64,000 nucleotides of DNA from Escherichia phage EcSzw-2. The first letter of the stretch is position 1, and each line of letters begins with the position of its first letter. The translations under genes and the position numbers were made by a program. Under the pieces are notes generated by a model. That model did not search any database. It saw nothing but the letters and a program-made list of their open reading frames with translations, and was not told the DNA's origin. The stretch is taken from sequence record MH791400.1. One strand, written 5' to 3'. Positions 51,625 through 51,917 of this stretch are shown here, in pieces.

Positions 51625-51707
51625 TGGCATGGGACGGAGGATTCGAACCCCTTTGAGTAAGTTTTGGAGGCTTACGCTCATGCCTTAGAGTCTTAACATC
51701 GTCCCAT
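51625..51707 (-). tRNA. atypical tRNA, probably tRNA-Trp (anticodon CCA), with about 7 extra nt between acceptor and D-stem
   Basis: Perfect acceptor AUGGGAC/GUCCCAU, T-arm AGGGGUUCGAAUCCUCC, anticodon loop CUCCAAA as in E. coli tRNA-Trp, but 5' region longer than canonical. Confidence 0.4.
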
Positions 51708-51849
51708 ACTACAATTCGAAGCTTACCGTATTATCACAACACTGTAAAGCCCCTTCTCAGATTTTTTACATGTTCTGGAAAACATGAGATACAGACCACC
51801 TCCATACAGGAAGACCCGCTAAGGTCGTCTAAGTAATCTGCTAACTATT

Positions 51850-51917
51850 TGGCAGTCAAGGTAGGAGTCGAACCTACTTACTATCGAAGGTAGCTAACCT
51901 TCAGTAACTTTCCGACT
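51850..51917 (-). tRNA. tRNA-like element (68 nt with CCA) lacking a canonical anticodon arm; possible pseudogene
   Basis: Acceptor AGUCGGA/CUUGACU (with wobbles), D-arm GUUA-CUGAAGGU-UAGC and perfect T-arm GUAGGUUCGACUCCUAC, but only about 15 nt between D and T arms. Confidence 0.3.

Follow-up and report, generated by a model that had tools for sequence, protein, structure and literature searches.

Three elements that resemble a transfer RNA (tRNA) or part of one lie, together with a cluster of tRNA genes, on the minus strand of Escherichia phage EcSzw-2 (MH791400.1), in a stretch of 64,000 nucleotides that is called the window here. They are element 1 (51707 to 51625), element 2 (51917 to 51850), and a T-arm hairpin at 52834 to 52818, and each invites comparison with RNAs that have been described before. 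Recognition of tRNA-Trp by the Escherichia coli tryptophanyl-tRNA synthetase (TrpRS) relies on the anticodon and G73 as major identity elements and on A1:U72 and G5:C68 as minor ones, and the enzyme contacts the anticodon and the first five acceptor pairs (PMC12135181). Phages carry 8/4 tRNA-Ser and tRNA-His (Mukai et al. 2017, PMC5389517), the paper on these 8/4 tRNAs making no mention of tryptophan, and in some allo-tRNA-like RNAs the acceptor and D stems are separated by an extra loop (PMC5389517, PMC7609411). In Y RNAs of the YrlA class, T, acceptor-like, and D modules occur in permuted order, sometimes with a V hairpin, and the RNAs adjoin Ro60 genes (Chen et al. 2014, PMC4201824); a phage example is the Ro60 of Thermus phage phiLo with its Yrl1 and Yrl2 (PMC12135203).

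Judging from the sequence and its relatives, we put at about 0.7 the probability of a joint reading in which element 1 is a tryptophan tRNA, element 2 is a non-decoding tRNA-shaped RNA, and the hairpin at 52834 to 52818 is the T arm of a YrlA-type Y RNA. A 14-mer scan of viral contigs gave mostly chance matches and a handful of real ones. The elements themselves are not chance matches, because element 1 recurs in 236 records, element 2 in 24, and the T-arm module in every locus examined.

An overlooked candidate for the tryptophan tRNA

Element 1 is 83 nt long including its encoded CCA and, in the RNA sense, reads AUGGGACG AUGUUAAGA CUC UAAGGCAU GAG C GUAAG CCUCCAAAA CUUAC UCAAA GGGG UUCGAAU CCUC CGUCCCAU G CCA. 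Sequence, fold, and covariation are best described by an 8-bp acceptor stem, a 3-bp D stem with an 8-nt loop containing GG, a 5-bp anticodon stem, a 5-nt variable region (UCAAA), and a 4-bp T stem with the loop UUCGAAU. An earlier note on this DNA had recorded a perfect acceptor stem and the anticodon loop CUCCAAA, and both are found on the minus strand: the stem AUGGGAC/GUCCCAU is without a mismatch and is followed by G73 and the CCA end, and the anticodon CCA (51667 to 51665) sits inside C-CUCCAAA-A. The T arm that was likewise called perfect is not so when drawn as a 5-bp stem, having A·C as its outer pair and one G·U. The roughly 7 extra nucleotides reported between the acceptor and D stems were right in size and place, in that deletion of any 6 nt within element 1 positions 9 to 19 led ARAGORN to call a 77-nt tRNA-Trp(cca), but the connector AUGUUAAGA (51699 to 51691) consists of a 7-nt loop flanked by an unpaired C·A, so that 9 nt are formally unpaired where canonical tRNA has 2.

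Native element 1 was not called by ARAGORN in its default or -ps mode, and neither ARAGORN nor Rfam reported anything at 51625 to 51707 or at 51850 to 51917. Mitochondrial mode did recognize the intact 83 nt as Trp(cca), giving them acceptor and T stems of 8 and 4 bp. The tRNA finders overlook the element because its body departs from the cloverleaf in the length of both of these stems, in the 9-nt loop, and in the 3-bp D stem. The canonical folds that covariance models might have restored to elements 1 and 2 did not appear, the Rfam tRNA model staying below threshold on both. An alternative D stem offered by ARAGORN for element 1, UUAA/UGAG, is contradicted by the double change U19>A / A30>U, which preserves CUC/GAG.

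Among the 236 phage records with element 1, a tRNA was annotated at its position in none of the 60 records listed. In the 365-nt gap between tRNA-Ser and tRNA-Arg, the distant Pectobacterium phages Arno18 and Wc4-1 can still be aligned over element 1 alone; the window and Arno18 are 80% identical in element 1, compared with 56 to 91% in canonical tRNAs. We aligned 11 distinct versions to the 8/3/5/4 helix model, which has 20 pairs, and used as controls the same pairs with partners slid by 1 to 3 columns. In this alignment, 99.5% of the cells were paired, and 8 of the 20 pairs, spread over all four helices, had changed on both sides; the slid controls contained no double-changed pair. The anticodon stem occurs as GUAAG/CUUAC, AACGG/CCGUU, GACGG/CCGUU, and GUAGG/CCUAC and the D stem as CUC/GAG, CAC/GUG, and CAU/GUG, the outermost T pair covaries between G-C and U-A, and pairs 1:72 and 2:71 are A-U/U-A or G-C/C-G. 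Invariant in the 11 versions are the anticodon CCA, U33, the GG of the D loop, the T-loop sequence UUC(G/A)A, G73, and the CCA end. The connector is identical in all 11 aligned versions, with one U>C in a version found later in Salmonella phage PC79-13 and with 2 extra nucleotides (11 nt) in the Pectobacterium phages. Set against the hallmarks of a tRNA, element 1 has four helices kept by compensatory change and the loop signatures G18G19, U33, T loop UUCRANY, and 3' CCA, and it lacks the 2-nt connector (positions 8 and 9) and the 7/5 acceptor/T arrangement of the canonical form.

The identity of the element points to tryptophan. All of the TrpRS identity elements are present in the window version; G5:C68, like G73 and CCA, is invariant across the 11 versions, and pair 1:72 is A-U in eight, G·U in two, and G-C in one. 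The best non-self match of the element 1 covariance model (34.6 bits) was the canonical tRNA-Trp of Erwinia phage phiEa21-4, from the sister genus Kolesnikvirus, an ordinary annotated gene with the same C-CUCCAAA-A loop. Tryptophan is also what the tRNA sets are short of. The window tRNAs found by ARAGORN and Rfam cover all amino acids but Trp, with Tyr reached only below the Rfam threshold, Trp alone is missing from the annotated set of Pectobacterium phage Wc4-1, and Trp is the sole amino acid without a tRNA in Ounavirinae sets (2026 preprint, PMC13015707).

The strongest evidence that element 1 is a Trp tRNA is an allelic relation. At the same locus, 23 Ounavirinae records carry a 71-nt tRNA-Trp(CCA) whose D arm is reduced to a 3-bp stem and a 5-nt loop and which directly precedes an HNH endonuclease gene, and in phiSUSP1 (locus L156, 5034 to 5104) and Sf19 (locus L160, 725 to 795) its upstream flank is the same as that of element 1. 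Its annotation varies (tRNA-Trp in five records, tRNA-OTHER or pseudo in three, elsewhere none), and ARAGORN detects it only at a lowered threshold. Because all four records without element 1 in the BLAST match (wV8, S19cd, LF82P5, and phiSUSP1) bear the 71-nt form, the two look like mutually exclusive alleles of one gene. Most likely, element 1 is a working tRNA-Trp, the overlooked one of the Ounavirinae, and a new structural variant of tRNA. Among the fates that the earlier note had considered for it (pseudogene, processed non-canonical tRNA, or tRNA-derived regulatory RNA), the non-canonical tRNA survives, and the pseudogene is opposed by compensation in four helices, invariant Trp identity, and allelic exchange.

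Compared with the canonical tRNA-Trp of E. coli and phiEa21-4 and with the 71-nt allele of wV8, phiSUSP1, and the O157 typing phages, element 1 shares CUCCAAA, G73, A1:U72, G5:C68, the T loop UUCGAAU, an encoded CCA, and a location in a tRNA operon; like the phiEa21-4 tRNA, it closes its anticodon loop with a C·A pair. It differs in having 9 rather than 2 nt between acceptor and D stems, an 8/4 rather than a 7/5 arrangement, and a 3-bp D stem, and in being invisible to the Rfam tRNA model and to default ARAGORN. The nearest precedents are the 8/4 tRNAs and the allo-tRNA-like RNAs, in which, as in element 1, a 12-bp acceptor/T stack is split 8+4. In the 8/4 allo-tRNAs, however, the variable arm is long, the D stem is long as in tRNA-Sec and ends in a tetraloop, and the identity is Ser, His, or suppressor, whereas element 1 has a 5-nt variable region, a 3-bp D stem, and Trp identity. 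Element 1 has the orientation of the tRNA operon, and we propose that it would be excised by ribonuclease P (RNase P) and 3' trimming like the neighboring tRNAs, its CCA being encoded. Host TrpRS would then charge it by way of the anticodon CCA, G73, A1:U72, and G5:C68, and the charged RNA would read UGG.

Several observations weigh against a functional tRNA. The Rfam tRNA model RF00005 gave no match to element 1 even at an E value of up to 10, and when the element was searched alone the best match in the Rfam clan was to tRNA-Sec, whose acceptor stem is long, with 26.4 bits where the threshold is 47. The pair that closes the anticodon loop is C·A or C·C, the D stem has just 3 bp, and the acceptor stem is interrupted by a G·A mismatch in REP11 and by a bulged U in the Pectobacterium versions. 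Since alleles move by recombination (a Felix-type element 1 stem is found in SUSP2, which is closely related to the window phage), the independent events behind the covarying changes are probably few, and fewer than the counts imply. E. coli enzymes failed to charge allo-tRNA-like RNAs whose extra loop lies in this position (PMC7609411), and phage tRNAs were mostly non-essential in the Felixounavirus Bas63 (2024 preprint).

Some of these points would suit a conserved tRNA-shaped RNA that does not decode. It might divert, as decoy or sponge, a host enzyme (a nuclease or a modification enzyme) directed at tRNA-Trp, or it might be a further ligand of the Ro60-like protein described below, its Trp features being kept as mimicry only. 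Such an RNA could be rejected by standard tRNA models and could resemble the uncharged extra-loop RNAs, as element 1 does, and the near-invariant connector loop suggests a recognition surface. True tRNA mimics are present in the cluster, and phage tRNAs are known to counter tRNA-cleaving defenses. We nevertheless think this explanation unlikely, in view of the allelism with a 71-nt gene that several annotators have called tRNA-Trp and of the way in which the element fills the sole gap of an otherwise complete tRNA set. Element 1 also keeps the full TrpRS identity set, U33, and the CCA end, and the covariance model of the Y RNAs gives no match to it.

The tRNA-shaped element next to tRNA-Arg

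The lineage of the window has an inserted unit of 127 nt, with GCCA at its end and element 2 within it, placed exactly between the CCA of the canonical tRNA-Arg(UCU) (52053 to 51977) and the spacer that follows. As first delimited (51917 to 51850, 68 nt), the element consists of AGUCGGA, a linker, a hairpin, a T arm, CUUGACU, G, and CCA. The perfect T arm and the CCA noticed earlier, and the missing anticodon arm, were borne out: the element has the T arm GUAGG-UUCGACU-CCUAC, G73, and CCA, and it lacks a 7-nt anticodon loop, its central hairpin having a loop of 5 nt. An acceptor stem can indeed be drawn from AGUCGGA and CUUGACU, but it contains two G·U and one A·C, and GGUCAAG (51969 to 51963), 52 nt upstream, pairs with CUUGACU at 7 of 7 positions to give a 120-nt RNA that ends in CCA (51969 to 51850). 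This alternative form, obtained from RNAalifold, pair counts, and the minimum free energy (MFE) fold, contains a helix CAUC/GGUG (51947 to 51944 with 51927 to 51924), the central hairpin (51902 to 51886), and the T arm (51877 to 51861).

Ten distinct versions were compared. The central hairpin, GAAGGU-UAGCU-ACCUUC, has 6 bp and a 5-nt loop; its closing pair covaries between U-A and G-C, and KPS64 has lost one nucleotide from each of its strands. This covariation supports the hairpin in place of the D arm GUUA/UAGC that had been proposed, with which it conflicts. The upstream helix CAUC/GGUG covaries between C-G and U-A, and the T arm and CCA end are invariant. The share of paired cells is 99.5% for the 120-nt form and 93.9% for the 68-nt form; the RNA may have either length, 120 nt being the more likely. 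From the cloverleaf of the earlier note there remains a tRNA-derived RNA without an anticodon arm, and both the D arm and the 68-nt length given there are probably wrong.

ARAGORN in its standard, -ps, and mitochondrial modes did not call element 2, and RF00005 gave a partial match of 15.9 bits. The element is not a decoder, because it has no anticodon loop, and we regard it as probably a conserved non-decoding tRNA-shaped RNA, our best guess for its role being that of a ligand or decoy for a tRNA enzyme. With its acceptor stem, T arm, and CCA end it would be released by tRNA-processing enzymes, and its two covarying hairpins would replace the D and anticodon arms. The tRNA cluster of phage T4 contains small structured RNAs, "species 1 and 2" (rnaC and rnaD), whose tRNA-like paired ends permit processing by tRNA enzymes. 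The resemblance of element 2 to these serves as a lead only.

Other pairings and origins for element 2 were tried and set aside. It is not a duplicated 3' half of the adjacent tRNA-Arg, the acceptor strands being different. A scan with its T arm and 3' strand returned unrelated Tyr, Trp, Phe, and Leu tRNAs and ends like those of transfer-messenger RNA (tmRNA) and was uninformative on ancestry. A D-arm-like GUUUAAUGGUCAAGAC right after tRNA-Arg has its first pair broken in the Mooglevirus lineage and has no 5' acceptor strand. The RNAalifold pairing AGUCGGA/UUCGACU, which destroys the T arm, is disfavored by the Mooglevirus change G57>A, seen in one sequence only.

The case for a conserved RNA is weakened by the distribution of the element and by the comparison itself. 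Element 2 was found in 24 records, all from Suspvirus or Mooglevirus and annotated in none, so that the ten versions represent two lineages only, and it is absent from most Ounavirinae, hence dispensable. Covariation also favors neither of its two acceptor stems. A relic is possible.

More broadly, elements 1 and 2 might both be decaying tRNA pseudogenes left by homing-endonuclease traffic, with conservation reflecting recent common ancestry only. The cluster is interrupted by HNH endonuclease genes, the Arg/element 2 site has four alternative states, element 2 is missing from most genera, and tRNAscan labels some tRNAs of this phage family "pseudo." We find such decay quite improbable, for the pairing of element 1 is kept by double changes in all four helices across genera whose flanks do not align, and the hairpins of element 2 are kept through compensatory substitution and a matched two-sided deletion. 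Element 2 moreover diverges less between genera than the adjacent, genuine tRNA-Arg.

It is highly improbable that element 2 instead joins the RNA partners of the Ro60-like protein, as a Y-like RNA whose ends form a 5'-3' stem, whose interior holds an invariant ACGAAAGUCGGAAAG containing CGAA, and which has a T arm. The ends of the 120-nt form do pair and CGAA lies in its most conserved internal stretch, the phiLo study having located phage Y-like RNAs by a CGAA motif in an internal bulge (PMC12135203), and Chen et al. describe both a Y RNA that has a T arm and a YrlA that RNase P cuts and that receives CCA (PMC4201824). Yet element 2 has neither the AGA/G bulged helix nor the UACAGCAA motif common to the four Y-like units described next, is not matched by the unit model R2, and is absent from the Felixounavirus genomes examined, which do encode the Ro60-like protein.

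Y-RNA-like units and a Ro60-like protein

The T-arm hairpin at 52834 to 52818 (GAAGG-UUCGAUU-CCUUC) had been regarded as an orphan. It exists, and it has no linear acceptor stem; far from being isolated, it belongs by its sequence context to a predicted YrlA-type, circularly permuted tRNA mimic (T arm, closed acceptor hairpin, D arm) within a Y-RNA-like unit. This unit, Ud (52893 to 52760, minus strand), is made up of a closing bulged helix, UACAGCAA, a V hairpin, the T arm, an acceptor-like closed hairpin (52817 to 52802), UG, and a canonical D arm (52799 to 52785, GUGU-AAUGGGA-GCAC). The order of T arm, closed hairpin, UG, and D arm is the same in all relatives, and the T-arm module occurs in every Felixounavirus, Suspvirus, and Mooglevirus locus examined. 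The closed hairpin has three covarying alleles (ACACG/CGUGU, ACUCG/CGAGU, and ACCCUUC/GAAGGGU), and the unit is enclosed by an 8-bp helix, AGACCGUU/AACGGUCU; 96% of the cells are paired. The spacer of about 425 nt between tRNA-Asp and tRNA-Lys is conserved in length and sequence across genera. Ud thus has the layout of YrlA, with T- and D-like stem-loops, an acceptor-like one between them, and an end-paired helix around them.

Three smaller units of the same kind lie farther upstream on the minus strand: Uc (52980 to 52901), with the same bulged helix, AUUCAGCAA, and an AU-rich interior; Ub (53435 to 53368), between tRNA-Met and tRNA-Asn (40 bits with R2); and Ua (53593 to 53524), between tRNA-Glu and tRNA-Met (32.4 bits with R2). 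All four share a 4-bp outer stem, an internal loop with AGA on the 5' side and G on the 3' side, an inner stem AGACC.../...GGUCU, and the motif (U)UACAGCAA or AUUCAGCAA. Their outer stems differ and still pair (UGAC/GUCA, UUGC/GCAA, GAGC/GCUC, and UUAC/GUAA). Across the fetched loci, with four units per genome, the outer stem was paired at 4 of 4 positions in 92 of 92 units, in six sequence combinations. Parts of Uc, Ub, and Ua (52905 to 52972, 53372 to 53427, and 53528 to 53585, minus strand) also gave weak Rfam matches, of 19 to 26 bits, to the Dictyostelium Class I RNAs, which likewise combine a 5'-3' stem with a CCUUACAGCAA motif; this likeness is probably convergence or chance.

About 1 kb upstream of Ud, upstream of the tRNA/Y-RNA cluster and in the same orientation, is a gene (53924 to 55195, minus strand) with the Pfam domains DUF2828 and DUF7788. 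It is also assigned to the PHROG category "RNA-binding protein," and its mycobacteriophage homologs are annotated "Ro-like RNA binding protein." Searches of its protein against the PDB by single sequence and by profile found nothing, and only the fold search matched. An AlphaFold model of an 88%-identical full-length homolog (mean pLDDT, a per-residue confidence measure, of 86.3) had Ro60 as all of its top 11 PDB matches, from Thermus phage phiLo, Xenopus, human, and D. radiodurans, with E values of 1e-8 to 2e-6, TM-scores of up to 0.68, and full-length alignments. On the strength of this model, Ud is encoded next to a predicted Ro60 ortholog. The homolog in Bas63, gp130, resembles Ro60 and counters the Ppl defense, and the same study guessed that some annotated tRNAs might be Y RNAs and named none (2024 preprint). 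Ua to Ud would be the RNA partners of the Ro60-like protein encoded just upstream of them.

The gene itself is shortened in this record. The open reading frame (53924 to 55345) gives 423 amino acids, compared with 471 in 99%-identical homologs, with about the first 45 codons lying in another frame. Either the frameshift is real or the record, marked "UNVERIFIED," contains a sequencing error; stop-codon read-through was discarded as an explanation, the shortened 5' end being a frameshift with no in-frame UGA.

The Y-like unit has candidate counterparts beyond the Ounavirinae. The Ud covariance model had matches in two other phages: in Mycobacterium phage BobsGarage the matched RNA (55.4 bits, E value of 2e-12) comes directly after the Ro-like gene, and in the unrelated Klebsiella phage FBKp34 (33.3 bits) it follows the DUF2828 gene. 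UACAGCAA is present in both of these elements and in Ud. The Rfam YrlA model scored the FBKp34 element at 39.6 bits (E value of 1.4e-5), below its threshold of 69. Downstream of the DUF2828 gene, FBKp34 (locus L167, 4350 to 4770) has four tandem units that each start with GAAGA...UACAGCAA, one of them with a YrlA-like tRNA mimic, and after these comes a tRNA cluster that includes a 114-nt "tRNA-Asp."

Like the YrlA RNAs with Ro60 (PMC4201824) and the phiLo system (PMC12135203), then, Ud has permuted T, acceptor-like, and D modules inside a 5'-3' helix, and several tandem Y-like RNAs adjoin the gene of a protein with the Ro60 fold. The window differs from the YrlA systems in its protein, which has DUF2828/DUF7788 without a Pfam TROVE match, and in the interspersion of its units among tRNA genes. 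Two further differences speak against calling Ud a YrlA RNA. The Rfam YrlA model (RF02553) gave no match on Ud, so formal membership in the family is not established, and the published motif GNCGAAN(0-1)G is missing at the expected place, where the 5' strand of Ud is CAGAAGACCGUUUACAGCAA and the units have AGA-AGACC...UACAGCAA.

Two other readings of this region did not hold. The GGCGAAGG beside the T arm was considered as the YrlA motif and is not conserved, with C>A in 4 versions. An Rfam tRNA match at 52810 to 52873 (30.6 bits) might suggest a Thr(GGU) pseudogene, whose "anticodon" loop in fact varies among CUGGUAA, CCGGUAA, CGGUAA, and CUGAUAA; it is not such a pseudogene, because this changing loop corresponds to the V hairpin of the Y RNA.

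The surrounding cluster and what the elements may mean

ARAGORN found 24 tRNA genes between 47951 and 53756 on the minus strand. To these Rfam added the weak match at 52810 to 52873; a tRNA-Glu(UUC) at 53601 to 53672 (minus strand, 53.7 bits) that ARAGORN overlooked; and, below threshold at only 22.8 bits, a tRNA-Tyr(GUA)-like gene at 53128 to 53208 (minus strand) that has a T-stem mismatch and is annotated "Tyr" or "pseudo" in relatives. A record of EcSzw_1 (MH791413.1; Ounavirinae, Suspvirus) is 100% identical to the window over the region tested and has no annotated tRNA within the stretch examined.

The 142-nt spacer between elements 2 and 1 (51849 to 51708, minus strand) is almost invariant across three genera and probably folds (MFE of -40.4 kcal/mol, z = -2.4). 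Its substitutions are mostly neutral for pairing (A-U, G·U, and G-C exchanging for one another), Mooglevirus has a 23-nt hairpin inserted within one of its stems, and a promoter-like TTTACA...TAAGCT / TGnGATAAT lies upstream of element 1. The spacer may serve element 1 as a promoter region, or it may be a structured leader or a small RNA. A strong promoter-like sequence, TTGACA-17-TATAGT (11 of 12 matches), occurs at 52260 to 52288 on the minus strand, followed by a leader of about 200 nt (52054 to 52259) and then tRNA-Arg(UCU). A sub-threshold Rfam match to tmRNA_permuted (52177 to 52362, 34.6 bits) overlaps tRNA-Ile, and the rest of the Asp-Lys spacer, downstream of Ud (52614 to 52759, minus strand), is conserved in Suspvirus and Mooglevirus and partly in Felixounavirus.

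HNH endonuclease genes stand between tRNA genes in the window (50811 to 51263, minus strand) and at homologous sites in relatives. Because their positions coincide with the sites at which tRNA alleles are swapped (the Arg position has four states and the Trp position two), homing-driven exchange of tRNA alleles within the cluster is suggested. Where the window has the 127-nt unit, other Ounavirinae have a plain tRNA-Arg(UCU) abutting the spacer, an HNH gene, or an 82-nt "tRNA-OTHER" that lacks a D arm and has the anticodon arm of an Arg tRNA. The last of these occurs in Escherichia phage REP11 (locus L008, 940 to 1021) and in at least 7 further loci of Felixounavirus. It is built from a 7-bp acceptor stem, only 7 nt in the place of the D arm, a UCU anticodon arm whose stem covaries between GCUGU/ACAGC and GCGGU/ACCGC, a 23-nt variable region, a T arm, and CCA, and is a second kind of aberrant tRNA in the family. 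In Pectobacterium phage Arno18 (locus L009, 3610 to 3698), an unannotated tRNA-Ser(UGA)-like gene, with a C·A mismatch closing its anticodon loop, comes directly after the Trp-like gene.

The cluster may, as a tentative and rather doubtful extension, be a mixed operon for conflict over tRNA, in which four Y RNAs partner a Ro60-like anti-defense protein while the odd bodies of tRNA-Trp and element 2 evade host factors that target tRNA or act as decoys for them. If so, the connector loop, or the shrunken D arm of the 71-nt allele, would be an adaptation rather than a tolerated defect.

Felix O1-like phages are widely used in typing, biocontrol, and therapy. If element 1 is the Trp tRNA, its annotation is absent from the listed records with this allele, and codon-usage analyses that start from such annotation inherit the error. 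As a natural tRNA, conserved and presumably used by E. coli translation, that combines an 8/4 arrangement with a 9-nt loop where the acceptor and D stems meet, it would then bear on the variability of the tRNA core and on the design of orthogonal tRNAs. The Y-RNA-like units, for their part, offer concrete RNA candidates for the Ro60-like anti-defense protein.

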